Source of the DNA: a virus
Length of the DNA stretch: 64,000 nucleotides
Reading direction: 5' to 3' (one strand)
Virus record (IMG/VR): IMGVR_UViG_3300044673_000097
Span: 1-64,000 of that record
The notes beneath the pieces are model-generated. The model did no database searches and was not told the origin of the DNA. It saw only the letters and a program-made list of their open reading frames with translations. Positions 51,159 to 54,149 of this stretch are shown one piece after another; the first letter of the stretch is position 1, and each line of letters starts with the position of its first letter. A program made the translations under genes and the position numbers.

Positions 51159-51332
51159 CCTGCATCCAATCCAAGGCCGCGCATTGCAGCGACACCGCGC
51201 GGGAGTCAATCCGCCTGAGGCTCGCACTGCATCCCATAACCTTCCCACCGTGCATTGCAGCATCGACCCAGCGACCTGCGCAGCGGCGTCTCGTTCCTGC
51301 ACCCCATGGCGCTCCCGCACACGCATTGCTGC
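51159..51332 (-). CRISPR. degenerate mini-CRISPR array 2 (3 repeats, 2 internal spacers)
   Basis: Repeats at 51296-51332, 51226-51261 and 51159-51190 (minus consensus GC(T/A)GCAATGC...AT(G/T)GG(A/G)TGCAG); spacers 34 and 35 bp. Confidence 0.7.
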
Positions 51333-51354
51333 GGGTGTCGTAGGACGCACGCGG

Positions 51355-51480
51355 TTCCAATGCGTTGCGAGATGGTCTGCGAGCGGTACTGATCCGCGAC
51401 CCGTTGCCGGACCGCTTGGCTGTGGACCGCTCGCGGGTTGGCGAGCCAAACGCCTTTGGGCATTGCAGTATGCCCACGAT
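51355..51480 (-). ncRNA. putative tracrRNA 2
   Basis: Scaffold GGGCA-TACTGCAA-TGCCC-AAAGGCG..CTCGCCAAC; anti-repeat TCTCGCAACGCATTG at 51358-51372. Confidence 0.65.
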
Positions 51481-51523
51481 GCCCCGCCAGACGAACAGAT
51501 TGTGCAGGGCTTCGTCATCGAAT

Positions 51524-52108
51524 TCACGCCGCAGGCTTGTGGAGCAATCCGTTGAGACGCTCGATCTCCGCCTTGAGTTCCCCGTTCTCCCTCTCGAGTT
51601 CCTTGACCCTCTCCTTGAGCCTTTCGACCTCCGATTGCTCCCGCGCTTCCTTGCGCACGGCCTTGACTTCCTGGCACGGCTTGCGCGCTTCGGGCGCAAC
51701 GTCGCGTACGATCTGGCGGACCTTCGGCAATCCAGGCGAGCACCCTTCCTTGTCGATGTGGTGCTTGATTGCGGCGACCAGTTCCGCCTTGCGGGCGGGA
51801 GTCGATACCACAGCGGGATGAATCATCGCATGCGCCGCATCGGGGCCGACCAACTTCGCCACCTCGATTCCGTATTCGTCGATCTGCCTGCACACGTGGT
51901 TGTACTGGTGCAGACCGATCACGTTCGGAAACTCGCGCGTCAGGAATGCTGAGAACGTGGCGTGCTGCCCGAGCTTCCACGTGCCCTCTTCCTCGATTGC
52001 CCGGAGCTGCACAAACACGTCAACGCCTGCGCTGTGCCACGTTGCCAGCAGCCCACGGACGCGATCGACAATCCCCTTGTACGCTCGCTCGTCGCTCTTC
52101 TTGCTCAT
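51524..52108 (-). CDS. hypothetical protein with C-terminal coiled coil, coupled to the Cas12f-like gene
   Basis: AGGAGG RBS, ATGA overlap; LRAIEEEGTWK..HATFSAFL.REF pattern. Confidence 0.75.
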   Translation of the reverse strand: MSKKSDERAYKGIVDRVRGLLATWHSAGVDVFVQLRAIEEEGTWKLGQHATFSAFLTREFPNVIGLHQYNHVCRQIDEYGIEVAKLVGPDAAHAMIHPAVVSTPARKAELVAAIKHHIDKEGCSPGLPKVRQIVRDVAPEARKPCQEVKAVRKEAREQSEVERLKERVKELERENGELKAEIERLNGLLHKPAA

Positions 52109-53610
52109 TGCACGACCTCCTGTTGCGGCGCCGTGAGCGCCTTGGTAACCCGGCCCTTCGTCTTCGCCTTGACCTTCTCTGCCACCTTGCCCGTGACCCC
52201 AGCGTGCCCCGCCTTCGCGAGCGCGTTGACGCATGCAACGATGTCGCGGTGTGCCTGGTGCTCGCACTTCTGGCACTTGAACCGCTTGACCACTTCGGAG
52301 CGCGTGAACCGTCGCCCGTGGTATTCGATCACCTCGACCCGCTGCGTGGCATCGAACAGATTTCCGGGGTCGGCATACCCGCACGCTGGGCACGTCTGCG
52401 AATCATACGCGACGTTCTTGATCTCGACTCGAACGCCGCGCTGCTTGCCCTCCCGATCGACGGCTTGCGCGAGTTCGTAGAACGGGAAGCTGTGAATCAT
52501 GCGCCGCACTTCCTCGTGCGCCTCTCCTCCGGTCTTGCGCTCGAATCCTTCGCGCGAGTCCGTCATGTCCGGCCACAGCAGCAGCCCGACATTGTGAGCA
52601 AGGCACCACGCGATTGCGCCCGCCGCAATCTGTCGGATGCGCGTAGTCACGAACCGGGACTCCGCGTCCTCGAGATTCGTCACCGGGCGCATTCGGCGTT
52701 TGACCCCGTGGCCCTTGGACCCGCTGCCCATCGTGTTGATGCACCGCTGGATTGATGCGCGACGGTGCGCGAATCGTTGCCTCGCGACCACGATGTCTTC
52801 GCCGGACACGTTGTGCTCGAAGCCGTCCGCTGTGACGATCTGGACGAACCTCGACACGCCGATGTGCGCAGCGGCCACGCCCGTGGAGGTCACTTCTGCG
52901 ACAGGCTCGCCAGACCATGAGATGAGGGCGAACCACTTTCGGCGGTTCTCGTCGTAGGAGATTCCCACGCGCCCGAGTTTCACCTCGCCCGAGACGAGCT
53001 TGCGCCACATTGCCTCGCCGTTCTTTCCGCACGGCGCGACGATGACGCGCGTGGCCTTCTTGCCTGCGCCCAACAGCGGGACGGTGAGCACGGCACGCGA
53101 CGGCGGCCCCTCGACTTCGCATGAACGCGAGCGGGCGTAGAATGCGGCGGACGCGTGCCACGACGGGAACGATGCCCGGTTCGCGAGCAGGTCTTTCAGG
53201 TGCTCACCCGTGAACCGGGAGGCAATGTTGTCCATCGTCTCGGCCGTCCAGTATTCGGTCACGTGGACGAAAGCATCTTCCGGCATCGGGCGCGATTGGC
53301 GCTTCGGCTTCTCCCGCTCGGATTGCTCACGAGCAAGCGCCGTCGCCATCTCGTCATTCCACATGCGCTGCAACACCGGGCCGATCTTCCCGGTGAAGGC
53401 GTACTTTGCGGAGTTCCTGTCGTCGGCGCGTCGCTTGAACGCGTCGAGCATCGCCACGGCTTCGGGATACAGCTCACGCATGGCCCGATTGAGCGCGGGA
53501 CCGAGCGTCATGCGCATGGCACGAAGGCGAGGACCAACGTCATCCCACGACGCAAGCTCGGGCTTGACGATTTCGACCTTCAGCGTTCCGGCTAGCGTCT
53601 TGGATTCCAA
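52105..53610 (-). CDS. cas12f: Cas12f1/TnpB-family RNA-guided protein with inactivated RuvC
   Basis: EIVKP...W, ASFPSW, LVSGE...KWFALISW, GHGVKRRMRP, SQTCPACG, FKCQKC..HRD..ACVN; RuvC-I AAHIG, RuvC-II LWPDM. Confidence 0.9.
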   Translation of the reverse strand: MESKTLAGTLKVEIVKPELASWDDVGPRLRAMRMTLGPALNRAMRELYPEAVAMLDAFKRRADDRNSAKYAFTGKIGPVLQRMWNDEMATALAREQSEREKPKRQSRPMPEDAFVHVTEYWTAETMDNIASRFTGEHLKDLLANRASFPSWHASAAFYARSRSCEVEGPPSRAVLTVPLLGAGKKATRVIVAPCGKNGEAMWRKLVSGEVKLGRVGISYDENRRKWFALISWSGEPVAEVTSTGVAAAHIGVSRFVQIVTADGFEHNVSGEDIVVARQRFAHRRASIQRCINTMGSGSKGHGVKRRMRPVTNLEDAESRFVTTRIRQIAAGAIAWCLAHNVGLLLWPDMTDSREGFERKTGGEAHEEVRRMIHSFPFYELAQAVDREGKQRGVRVEIKNVAYDSQTCPACGYADPGNLFDATQRVEVIEYHGRRFTRSEVVKRFKCQKCEHQAHRDIVACVNALAKAGHAGVTGKVAEKVKAKTKGRVTKALTAPQQEVVQ

Positions 53611-53616
53611 CTGTCA

Positions 53617-53853
53617 CCTCCAATGCTCACGCTTCGATCCTCGATCGCGAGGTCAAGGCCTGTCGTTTCCATTTCATTCTCCTGCCCTGCAATCGATGAC
53701 GCTTCGATCCGCGATCGCGAGTCGAAGGGCGCGAACGTGCACGCCACGGCATATCCCCTGCAATCGATGGCGCAACGATCCTCGATCGTCACCGTCGTGG
53801 AGACGGTTTGCGGCGCCGCGTTTCCAGTGCCTGCACCCGTTCACGCTCCAACC
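53617..53853 (-). CRISPR. mini-CRISPR array 1 (3 full repeats + 1 truncated repeat, 3 spacers)
   Basis: 35-36 bp repeats at 53617-53651, 53686-53721 and 53757-53792 (minus CTCGCGATCGCGGATCGAAGCGTCATCGATTGCAGG); partial repeat 53830-53853; spacers 34, 35 and 37 bp. Confidence 0.88.
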
Positions 53854-54149
53854 TTTTCGCAATCGTGGATCGAAACGCAATCGTTGGCGAGGACGATGCC
53901 TCGCCTTTGCGCCTTGCAGCAGGCGCTCTCGAAAACATCCGACTGGGCATCCTCTCCCACACGCGCAAGGATGCGTTCGCATTCCGAACTGTCAACGTGC
54001 AGCGCTGTCGATTCAGCAGATTGTTCCACTTGACAATCCCCACACCCCTCAAACTCCTGCCGCTCCGGCACCCACACCCGGCCAGTGCCGCCGCATGGGC
54101 AAGGCGGCTTGTACCGGCCCAGCGCTTCGAGCTGTGCGCGGGAGGTCAT
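53841..54149 (-). CDS. small Cys-rich ORF whose 3' half overlaps tracrRNA 1
   Basis: ATGA overlap with the upstream gene; CPCGG...GCGDC. Confidence 0.4.
   Translation of the reverse strand: MTSRAQLEALGRYKPPCPCGGTGRVWVPERQEFEGCGDCQVEQSAESTALHVDSSECERILARVGEDAQSDVFESACCKAQRRGIVLANDCVSIHDCEKVGA
53857..53960 (-). ncRNA. putative tracrRNA 1
   Basis: Inverted repeat copy at about 53857-53885; upstream hairpins GCGCC-TGCTGCAA-GGCGC and GGCGAGG..CCTCGCC. Confidence 0.75.
53968..53995 (-). promoter_or_regulatory. candidate promoter for tracrRNA/array/effector
   Basis: Minus strand TTGACA-16 nt-CATCCT. Confidence 0.4.

Follow-up and report, generated by a model that had tools for sequence, protein, structure and literature searches.

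Several proteins derived from Cas12 or TnpB are described as binding DNA without cutting it, with Cas12m, Cas12k, TldR and dCas12f-sigmaE as precedents. TldR, dCas12f-sigmaE and Cas12m are recently discovered regulators, each coupling binding to output in a different way. In Cas12m (V-M) and TldR, RNA-guided binding blocks transcription and carriage is by plasmids, prophages or temperate phages, while dCas12f-sigmaE (Hoffmann, Wiegand et al., Nature 2026, PMC13472631) is a Cas12f-derived, nuclease-dead protein of Bacteroidetes chromosomes with a co-encoded ECF sigma factor. The Cas12f1 proteins of type V-F (AsCas12f, CnCas12f1; PDB 7wju, 8dzj, 8j12) are miniature, possess a TNB zinc ribbon and use tracrRNA-dependent guides from arrays without cas1, cas2 or cas4. 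A further subtype, V-U24, was named, not studied, by Altae-Tran et al. (PNAS 2023, PMC10691335).

Here we analyse a locus in IMG/VR record IMGVR_UViG_3300044673_000097 (85,379 bp), of which positions 1–64,000 form the stretch of 64,000 nucleotides referred to as the window. On balance we think it probable that the locus represents a Cas12f-derived type V system, CRISPR-like but free of adaptation genes and carried by a temperate phage, which would combine RNA-guided DNA binding without cleavage with a dimeric partner.

A phage-borne locus and its described relatives

The locus is carried by a temperate soil phage of 65% G+C, with the IMG/VR record and the adjoining terminase showing that it is phage-borne. 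When ten ORFs around the locus were compared with PHROGs, they matched terminase, phrog_645 or HNH-like families or had no match; packaging genes lie directly downstream, and a tyrosine integrase is found at 2732–3232 of the phage record. The following features were mapped, all on the minus strand:

53883..53926, minus: guide scaffold 1 (covariance model CM R1, trained on relatives alone, and motif match)
53830..53882, minus: anti-repeat and half repeat paired in cis as hairpin C, the half repeat ending GGGUGCAGG (minimum free energy (MFE) fold, duplex energies)
53650..53829, minus: array 1 (repeat search, family D1, and lag test)
53616..53649, minus: terminal degenerate repeat of array 1 (sequence)
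52105..53610, minus: Cas12f-like effector, 501 aa (PF07282, Cas12f1 structures, RuvC-III alignment)
51524..52108, minus: partner protein, 194 aa (conserved neighbour of the effector)
51437..51475, minus: guide scaffold 2 (CM R1, motif match)
51375..51434, minus: long hairpin C2 (fold, z -1.54; 18 of 200 shuffles equally stable)
51159..51332, minus: array 2 (71-nt-period motif, end motif derived from the relative L006, pairwise alignments)

This order of scaffold, three-spacer array, Cas12f-like gene, 194-aa gene, second scaffold and degenerate array is the one given by an earlier, sequence-only reading of the window. Its claim that the window holds no cas1, cas2, cas4 or transposase extends to the whole record: Cas1, Cas2, Cas4 and Y1 transposase were found neither in the 85,379 bp nor in a 137-kb relative. 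The candidate promoter it placed ahead of scaffold 1 was not supported, as a consensus scan of the minus strand from 50800 to 54600 called none and no suitable -10 box accompanies the TTGACA at 53995. Sequence identical to the locus was present in contigs from two more rhizosphere runs (X3 and X4), and no RNA run searched for the locus gave a match.

The family is phage-borne, small and accompanied by a conserved partner, and it probably corresponds to subtype V-U24, to judge by the text description of that subtype. Both have a noncanonical RuvC-I across the group (here Asp in 0 of 19 members), and the likeness may extend to the helical partner beside the effector, which here adjoins it in six of seven distinct relatives, including L004 from a clade with a 23%-identical effector; Pfam recognises in this partner only a coiled coil, and the Atlas makes it DUF3102-like. 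The difference is that tracrRNA, dual modules, fused guide units and phage carriage go unmentioned in the V-U24 text of PMC10691335. CRISPR arrays or guide units occurred in all seven distinct relatives examined. In the closest of these, L006 (65% identity), guide modules flank the operon on both sides, hence the two-module layout is inherited and no one-off. The earlier description of this architecture as unrecognised was thus overstated, given its presence in L006 and the probable cataloguing of the wider family as V-U24. The search for syntenic loci that it proposed found the partner beside the effector as above, and homologues without flanking repeats and with pseudogene-like decay, which it had named as grounds for doubt, were not what we saw: arrays or guide units accompanied 7/7 relatives, and 19/19 family members were full-length ORFs with 39 invariant columns.

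With Cas12f1 the locus shares its best sequence matches, miniature size, zinc ribbon, tracrRNA-dependent guides and arrays lacking cas1/2/4, yet it differs in RuvC-I (Asp to His), RuvC-II (Glu to Pro), a 24-aa zinc-ribbon insert, a dedicated partner gene and guide modules flanking the operon. With dCas12f-sigmaE it shares a Cas12f origin, a nuclease-dead state (predicted here), a co-encoded partner, guide units capable of being fused and set in arrays, and a role that is presumably regulatory, not immune. However, a C-terminal truncation removes RuvC-III from dCas12f-sigmaE as described in PMC13472631, whereas D456 and the zinc ribbon are kept here; an ECF sigma factor is the partner there, ours matches coiled-coil families only; and their hosts are Bacteroidetes chromosomes, ours a 65% G+C phage. 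Membership of that group, which is marked by this truncation and by a neighbouring rpoE with a CTD extension, was rejected on the RuvC-III Asp, the second CxxC and a partner without a sigma-factor match. Cas12m and TldR resemble the locus in their mobile carriage and in the blocking of transcription that we propose here. TldR differs in using a single omega-RNA, which overlaps the 3' end of the gene, and no CRISPR array, in contrast to the repeats, spacers and separate scaffold of this locus. Membership of TldR/TnpB, of which TnpB sits in an IS200/IS605 context, was rejected on the arrays and separate scaffold, a score of 76 bits against the 100-bit cut-off of NF040570, and no Y1 transposase in the record. 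Cas12m is not known to use a tracrRNA, and no Cas12m structure was among the PDB matches of the effector. Cas12k (V-K, CAST) is marked by Tn7-like tnsB, tnsC and tniQ next to its effector gene.

The effector and its RuvC pocket

The effector matched PF07282 (E 5.6e-12, 46.1 bits, cut-off 26.3) and the Cas12f1 structures 8j12, 7wju and 8dzj (E about 5e-16, residues 188–419), and with 501 aa it is a protein of miniature size that possesses a TnpB/Cas12f-type RuvC together with a TNB zinc ribbon (CPAC...CQKC), in which a 24-aa insert separates the two CxxC pairs. Its match to NF040570 guided_TnpB (E 3.1e-21) stayed under the cut-off. These profile searches, which the sequence-only reading had suggested, agree with its view of an AsCas12f1-like protein; judged by sequence, the effector is closest to AsCas12f/CnCas12f1. 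PDB entry 9n9c ("Nuclease-deactivated Cas12f", 365 aa), which we take to come from the dCas12f-sigmaE study, matched only at E 2.2e-5.

The effector lacks an intact RuvC D-E-D triad, as two of the three residues are replaced. The triad reads H249 (RuvC-I), P347 (RuvC-II) and D456 (RuvC-III): H249 stands opposite the GIDLGV Asp of 8j12 and P347 opposite the MEDLT Glu, while a RuvC-III alignment shows the third Asp kept. Among 19 family members, the RuvC-I residue was Asn in 13, His in five and Val in one, the RuvC-II residue Glu in 12, Pro in five, His in one and Val in one, and the RuvC-III Asp was present in 18. The claim that the protein is nuclease-dead stands as far as these replacements go, with the loss of cleavage itself deduced from the residues. 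From the H/P/D pocket we infer that the effector, with its Cas12f fold and zinc ribbon kept, would bind guide-matched DNA without cutting it.

It is quite unlikely, in our estimate, that the pocket is remodelled instead of dead, so that the effector cuts or nicks DNA as an interference system against rivals or only processes its own pre-crRNA. All five members of the window's clade share the His, a WPDMT motif and the RuvC-III Asp without variation, and this Asp is kept in nearly the whole family, which points to constraint on the pocket, and many altered RuvC sites may keep activity according to Altae-Tran et al. (PMC10691335). Against this, one acidic triad residue remains in the clade, Pro at RuvC-II is unable to bind metal, and the RuvC-I Asp is missing from 19/19 members, as in the binding-only relatives described. 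As the window's clade has also lost the RuvC-II Glu, the family offers a natural series in which to ask what an altered pocket still does.

Two guide modules flanking the operon

Scaffold 1 was the top CM R1 match in the window (52 bits, E 8.8e-10), and the scaffold motif occurred twice in the window against 0.00 expected. Its hairpin A has the stem GCGCC/GGCGC and the loop UGCUGCAA, and its hairpin B is formed by GGCGAGG/CCUCGCC. Hairpin C follows, in which a half repeat fused to the scaffold ends at 53830. Scaffold 1, anti-repeat and half repeat together are a natural single-guide-like unit. The MFE fold of 53930–53830 reached -40.8 kcal/mol (z -2.17; 4 of 200 shuffles equally stable), and the anti-repeat formed duplexes with the module 1 repeats of -43.9, -41.1 and -33.6 kcal/mol (z -5.3, -4.8 and -2.4) versus about -25 in shuffles. 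Module 1 therefore possesses a tracrRNA-type scaffold whose anti-repeat is complementary to the CRISPR repeat of the array beside it, as in Cas12f-type systems, and the first of the two tracrRNAs claimed earlier is borne out by its scaffold score and strong pairing.

The three spacers claimed for array 1 were likewise recovered. Three 34-nt repeats (53790–53757, 53719–53686, 53649–53616), 88–100% alike across 33 nt, accompany spacers S1-0 (53829–53791), S1-1 and S1-2 (53685–53650), and self-similarity was 30/36 at lag 71 and 29/36 at lag 70, above a shuffle maximum of 23 (n = 300). The terminal repeat, which has retained its pairing with the anti-repeat (-41.1 kcal/mol, z -4.8), has the 3' end AUUGGAGG in place of AUUGCAGG and provides the GGAGGTG Shine-Dalgarno upstream of the TTG start at 53610.

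Scaffold matches were obtained in the window (2), L001, L002, L003, L006 (8), L007 and L008. Across 16 matches, 95.2% of cells were paired versus 82% in shuffles, and eight of 12 pairs were altered on both sides. The hairpin A loop and the repeat 3' end also covary: the window has CUGCAA/UUGCAG where L006 has UUGCAC/GUGCAA. Under the preferred reading, the three-hairpin scaffold of module 1 would play the tracrRNA role, with the 5' part of the repeat pairing with the anti-repeat and its 3' end UUGCAG with the hairpin A loop, and the first unit would serve as a fused natural single guide. Guides appear to be encoded in the family as compact scaffold-plus-guide units of about 60–100 nt.

Module 2 is eroded, though genuine. 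The scaffold there was the second-best CM R1 match in the window (23.1 bits, E 0.0023), with hairpin A formed by GGGCA/UGCCC around the loop UACUGCAA and hairpin B cut to 4 bp, and the duplexes between tracrRNA 2 and the repeats were on a par with shuffles (z -0.1 to -0.6). The second tracrRNA is thus present as a scaffold, though weaker than the sequence-only reading implied. The array claimed there has three repeats (51332–51296, 51261–51226, 51190–51159), two spacers (51295–51262, 51225–51191) and a guide-like stretch past 51158, but its repeats are degenerate, about 60% alike in pairwise alignments, and the best ungapped lag was only 23/36 (p about 0.01). The motif GCWGCAATGC occurred four times in the window against 0.5 expected, a count reached by 0 of 100 shuffles, and three of the copies are spaced exactly 71 nt; the L006-derived end motif GGRTGCARG gave three window matches, all on the minus strand within the locus.

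This erosion (short hairpin B, dissimilar repeats, non-significant anti-repeat pairing) would fit a decaying relic without function in this phage, as would the very short arrays and the spacer searches, in which seven spacer-like stretches found no target in the phage's own genome, GenBank phages or related loci and one spacer found no match in IMG/VR. We regard a relic as highly improbable, since the two coupled ORFs are undamaged, module 1 keeps well-matched repeats and strong anti-repeat pairing, and an identical sequence recurs in the two other rhizosphere runs.

The partner protein and the proposed output

The coupled 194-aa gene of the sequence-only reading is confirmed by its conservation beside the effector and by its start, which overlaps the cas12f stop as ATGA; the overlap is also ATGA in L006 and is 14 nt in L004. 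The protein combines a helical N-domain, DUF3102-like by the Atlas alone (TM 0.63–0.67), with a C-terminal leucine zipper, and is probably a dimer. Its family comprises 254 representatives at E <= 1e-3; bZIP_1-type coiled-coil matches lie under the cut-off in seven of eight members, Pfam found a coiled coil and nothing else in 149 members, and profile searches found no sigma, recombinase or ATPase domain in the partner. In the Atlas it most resembles phage and plasmid proteins of the DUF3102 and plasmid-partition-N types, in clusters where 10–14% of members carry DUF3102, and these look-alikes are the sole basis for a possible DNA-binding nature, the HTH character being only an Atlas lead.

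Pairwise identities of effector and partner correlate with r = 0.80 over 15 non-independent pairs. Correlated identities of two adjoining genes may reflect plain co-inheritance.

In the mechanism we favour, the partner would act with the effector at the target as a roadblock, bridge or adaptor, or else control the locus through a conserved leader box, and host genes or rival mobile elements would be silenced in the manner of CRISPRi, either in lysogeny or in the course of an infection. A separate reading places the partner outside the effector complex, as an autoregulator at this box or at a promoter, with the effector still a binder of DNA; we see this as possible, if on the unlikely side. 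The box GCTCGCA(A/G)A lies 52–55 nt ahead of the first repeat in the window and four relatives (L001, L002, L003, L008), and in the window it is GCTCGCAGAC (51384–51375) in the 3' arm of hairpin C2, 52 nt ahead of array 2 repeat 1. An HTH protein of dCas12f-sigmaE loci is reported to bind its own promoter and to be dispensable for targeting (PMC13472631). However, the box count in the window is at chance level (1 versus 1.36 expected), the partner is translationally coupled in the window, L006 and L004, and it tracks the effector (r 0.80) in contrast to that HTH protein, for which PMC13472631 gives an R2 of 0.19.

A complex that recruits another activity through the partner as adaptor, such as activating transcription, recombining DNA, or controlling replication or partition, and no simple roadblock, would recall dCas12f, which brings sigmaE to start transcription (PMC13472631), and would suit both the Atlas look-alikes and the packaging genes just downstream. 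We give this little credence, as the partner lacks any domain of the sigma, recombinase or ATPase kind, the ten ORFs compared with PHROGs include no Tn7-type transposase, the record has no Y1 transposase and the Atlas matches are leads only.

A bolder version of the preferred binding without cleavage is speculative and rather unlikely: effector and zipper-dimer partner would form a new phage-specific two-protein RNA-guided output module, with the partner, not the Cas protein, delivering the effect, perhaps as a bridge between two bound complexes or through host machinery that it recruits, the flanking modules acting as natural multiplex single-guide arrays, and S1-2 aimed at, or taken from, a rival phage's related CRISPR repeat, as CRISPRi against another element's CRISPR. 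If the partner is the output subunit, the family would provide a new coupling principle and a compact programmable binder that brings its own dimeric adaptor, and would also show temperate phages using CRISPR-derived tools without adaptation genes.

Control within the locus may also occur: because the last array 1 repeat carries the cas12f Shine-Dalgarno, tracrRNA or effector on this repeat could feed back on effector translation.

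Effector family and nuclease site

The effector and its partner are encoded on the minus strand with overlapping ends.

Coding features of the locus
52105-53610, minus: Cas12f-like effector, 501 aa, TTG start, GGAGGTG before the start
51524-52108, minus: partner (194 aa), its ATGA start overlapping the effector stop codon

The effector matched the Pfam Cas12f1-like TNB domain (PF07282, E 5.6e-12, above cut-off) and NCBIfam guided_TnpB (E 3.1e-21, under that model's cut-off), and its closest solved structures were the Cas12f1 proteins 8j12, 7wju and 8dzj (E ~5e-16). His249 aligned to the Asp of GIDLGV (RuvC-I) in these structures, with 7wju showing Ala at the matching position, presumably as a D-to-A mutant, and Pro347 aligned to the Glu of MEDLT (RuvC-II). 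These structural matches and two replacements bear out the AsCas12f-type effector with an altered nuclease site proposed in the sequence-only reading. When the C-terminal 185 residues were searched separately, FKCQKCEHQAHRD aligned to FKCRACGYEANAD of AsCas12f, hence the RuvC-III Asp (D456) is retained. The zinc ribbon has both of its CxxC pairs, with ~24 additional residues between.

A word-index search of 5.8 billion proteins with the effector returned 20 relatives (34–67% identity), and a profile search returned the identical set. The alignment holds 19 of these, a 312-aa fragment (P0018) having been left out.

RuvC residues in the 19 aligned members
RuvC-I: Asn 13, His 5, Val 1, Asp 0
RuvC-II: Glu 12, Pro 5, His 1, Val 1
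RuvC-III: Asp 18, Glu 1

The five proteins with His at RuvC-I form the window's own clade (51–67% identity), and all five possess WPDMT instead of the RuvC-II E-D-L motif. RuvC-I is thus altered in 19/19 members, and the window's clade lacks a second catalytic residue as well, the RuvC-II Glu. There were 39 invariant columns across the aligned family and every member was full-length; judged from the alignment, the RuvC alteration is a conserved change, not decay. The proposed RNA-guided regulator stands in part: very probably the system binds DNA under RNA guidance, is deficient in cleavage and has a dedicated partner. The regulatory role and the targets of the system are still inferred.

Related loci and the partner protein

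Related loci were collected by pattern scans of genome_contigs (one locus), viral_contigs (three) and metagenome_contigs (five); viral_contigs scanned with a single protein gave no locus.

Related loci and their repeats
L001: Deltaproteobacteria MAG contig, 6 repeats
L002: IMG/VR contig, 9 repeats
L003: IMG/VR contig, 2 repeats
L004: IMG/VR contig, distant, 8 repeats
L005: metagenome contig, duplicate of L006
L006: metagenome contig, at least 8 scaffold-plus-guide units
L007: metagenome contig, 6 + 3 repeats
L008: metagenome contig, 11 repeats
L009: metagenome contig, 1.4-kb fragment

Distinct relatives (n = 7) were counted without L005 and L009. Repeats were carried by 7/7 distinct relatives with flanks, with a period of 70–74 nt and related 3' ends (GTCA...TGCAG-like). 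With the effector family full-length as well, the homologues neither lack flanking repeats nor show decay, two of the outcomes that the sequence-only reading had set against itself.

A partner homologue sits immediately downstream of the effector, either ahead of the array or behind it, in L001, L002, L003, L006 and L008. It is also found in L004 (4713-7300, on a 44-kb contig), where a 474-aa Cas12f-like protein of only 23% identity is followed by a partner homologue overlapping its stop (E 6.9e-12 to the partner profile) and then by the array. This shared effector-partner-array layout indicates that the partner association is older than the effector family. No homologue was found on the 5.5-kb contig of L007, hence adjacency holds in 6/7 distinct relatives and, together with the ATGA overlap, confirms the coupled partner gene. 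Pairwise identities of effector and partner were correlated (r = 0.80, 15 pairs from six loci, the pairs not being independent).

The partner family comprised 254 representatives at E <= 1e-3 in an exhaustive profile search, 32 of them at <= 1e-30, nearly all 180–220 aa long. Sequence searches of Pfam, NCBIfam, PHROGs and PDB identified only a C-terminal leucine-zipper-like coiled coil. The N-terminal 140 residues were placed near phage/plasmid clusters in the ESM Atlas (query TM 0.63–0.67), in which 10–14% of members carry DUF3102; in a HMMER search over 149 partner members DUF3102 was absent from the top 25 families. The Atlas placement is a lead rather than a test.

Scaffold RNAs and guide modules flanking the operon

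Upstream of the effector gene in L008, L001 and L003, a hairpin pair is followed by two further hairpins, finishing with an anti-repeat, AACACCTGAC, complementary to the 3' part of the locus's own repeats. Eleven units, all from relatives, went into a covariance model covering the first two hairpins, with which the whole window was scanned, filters off.

RNA features of the locus
53926-53883, minus: scaffold 1 (module 1, upstream of the effector gene), 52 bits, E 8.8e-10, best match in the window
51475-51437, minus: scaffold 2 (module 2, downstream of the partner gene), 23.1 bits, E 0.0023, second best
51375-51384, minus: leader box GCTCGCA(A/G)A, starting 52 nt ahead of the first array 2 repeat

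The third-best match had E 0.065. Of the cells in 16 matches (window plus six loci), 95.2% were paired vs 82% when shuffled (0/500 reached the observed value). Both sides had changed in 8/12 pairs and sliding the partner columns lowered pairing to <=49%, in an alignment which had been fitted to the covariance model. A motif common to both scaffolds occurs exactly twice in the window (0.00 expected). Rfam held no family for scaffolds or repeats; its sole row, RsmY (E 0.83), was taken as chance. Scaffold 1 overlaps the 3'-terminal ~90 nt of an upstream ORF (53841-54149).

In module 1, an anti-repeat (~53878-53860) after hairpins A and B pairs back on a half repeat ending GGGTGCAGG at 53830 (-40.8 kcal/mol, z -2.17), hence the first unit resembles a natural single guide. 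Spacer S1-0 comes after it, and then three 34-nt repeats (array 1), whose duplexes with the scaffold region reached -33.6, -43.9 and -41.1 kcal/mol vs ~-25 when shuffled (z -2.4, -5.3, -4.8). The hairpin A loop CUGCAA and the UUGCAG at the repeat 3' end are complementary; the corresponding L006 sequences are UUGCAC (loop) and GUGCAA (repeat end), thus both outer pairs of the 6-bp contact have changed in a compensatory manner. The last repeat of array 1 ends AUUGGAGG, which breaks the loop contact and creates the cas12f Shine-Dalgarno site. Tandem Repeats Finder missed both arrays because spacers interrupt the tandem structure, and lag and motif tests were used instead.

In module 2, hairpin A is accompanied by a shortened hairpin B (4 bp) and by a long hairpin (z -1.54, equalled by 18/200 shuffles). 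Its repeats of 37, 36 and 32 nt each start with GC(A/T)GCAATGC and finish with (G/A)TGCAG(G/T). The start motif occurs four times in the window vs 0.5 expected (0/100 shuffles reach four), three of these at an exact 71-nt spacing, and the L006-derived end motif GGRTGCARG three times vs 2.2 expected, all within the locus on the minus strand. A plus-strand reading of the repeats was rejected, since the minus strand carries these ends as well as scaffold 2 and the leader box. The leader box recurs in L001 (2348), L002 (2804), L003 (6632) and L008 (5390), where it begins 52, 55, 52 and 53 nt, respectively, ahead of the first repeat in the downstream array; its count in the window (1 vs 1.36 expected) is at chance level, hence only its position is informative. 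With five loci sharing it, the box is a candidate leader or protein-binding element. The array 2 repeats are ~60% alike (best ungapped lag 23/36, p ~0.01), and their duplexes with scaffold 2 equalled shuffles (z -0.2, -0.1, -0.6). On sequence grounds module 2, leader included, is truly homologous to the array found downstream in the relatives, but it may be losing function.

On the upstream side of its effector gene, the locus L006, whose effector is 65% identical to the window's, has half repeats together with two scaffold-guide units; at least six such units follow downstream of the partner gene. Guide units on both operon sides in this relative show the two-module architecture to be conserved in the clade and not unique to this phage. 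The L006 units (4420-4660 and 6720-7560) are ~60 nt long and interleaved with 16-nt half repeats and ~20-nt spacers; they look like a natural multiplex single-guide array. L008 also has a half-repeat mini-array upstream (3590-3720), besides its array of 11 repeats downstream. The distant relatives are arranged as scaffold, effector, array. Our reading is that, in the window's clade, the upstream scaffold gained repeats and the downstream array gained a copy of the scaffold. No description of the two-module architecture was found in literature on dead Cas12f, TnpB/Cas12 classification, V-U24 or phage mini-arrays. The minus-strand locus was confirmed as first listed save for its promoter, which is dropped, as a consensus scan of 50800-54600 gave no minus-strand promoter; it gave two terminator-like sites only, neither after the arrays.

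Known systems, spacers and phage setting

V-U24, as named by Altae-Tran et al. 2023 (PMC10691335), comprises Cas12 proteins whose RuvC-I site is noncanonical and with which an HTH protein of unknown function is associated; no other relevant literature on it was found. Our effector family agrees with this description in its noncanonical RuvC-I and in having an associated protein, and probably belongs to V-U24. The dCas12f-sigmaE system, as outlined in Hoffmann, Wiegand et al. 2026 (PMC13472631), differs on three counts, namely its C-terminal truncation, sigma-factor partner and occurrence in Bacteroidetes. Cas12m and TldR are analogous to the window system in function but are not its relatives. 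The window system is a variant of a probably catalogued but unstudied kind. Models for Cas1, Cas2, Cas4 and Y1 transposase matched nothing in the 85,379-bp parent record, a 137-kb relative or a 9.5-kb relative (controls matched in 6–8 of 14 known genomes), which extends the claimed absence of cas1/cas2/cas4, and for transposases that of the Y1 type, to the whole record. An IS200/IS605 TnpB element was rejected on the absent Y1 transposase and the presence of CRISPR arrays.

Seven spacer-like stretches had only chance-level matches (<=16 nt) in the 85-kb genome, the whole locus gave two chance rows against GenBank phages (E 0.3 and 0.9), and one 23-nt spacer stretch had 0 matches in IMG/VR. Array regions compared across loci revealed no target, only scaffold similarity and one match between a spacer and a repeat. 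This spacer, S1-2 (53685-53648, minus), agrees with the CRISPR repeat of the distant relative L008 (5515-5550) at 16/17 bases, the offset (10-27) being the same in both. Its local score reaches z 8.2 (0/200 shuffles as high), for a match spotted post hoc with BLAST E 0.63 in a small database. S1-2 could be a guide acquired from, or directed against, the array of a rival system, or else a repeat copy that has decayed.

The parent record is an IMG/VR virus with a CheckV completeness estimate of 88%, of which the window is the first 64 kb; G+C is 65.1%, vs 63.1% at the locus.

Phage genes and neighbours of the locus
2732-3232, plus: tyrosine integrase in an open frame of 390 aa (PF00589, E 4e-16)
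47769-49142, same strand as the locus, just downstream: large terminase
Just downstream, same strand as the locus: phrog_645 protein (PHROGs match)
53841-54149, minus: Cys-rich small ORF (CPCGG...CGDC), without family match, stop at 53841
55305-55991, minus: 228-aa ORF, phrog_3230 (unknown function), E 4.1e-50

Given the integrase, the element is probably a temperate phage. A tyrosine integrase is also encoded by the 137-kb relative. The large terminase is <51% identical to those of phages of many different hosts. Variation across contigs of four DNA runs was uninformative, the pieces being short and of low depth; near-identical DNA was found in contigs from four rhizosphere metagenome runs, two of them possibly the record's own source, and no RNA run was found to contain the locus. 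Among the upstream neighbours, the phrog_3230 ORF has the strongest family match.
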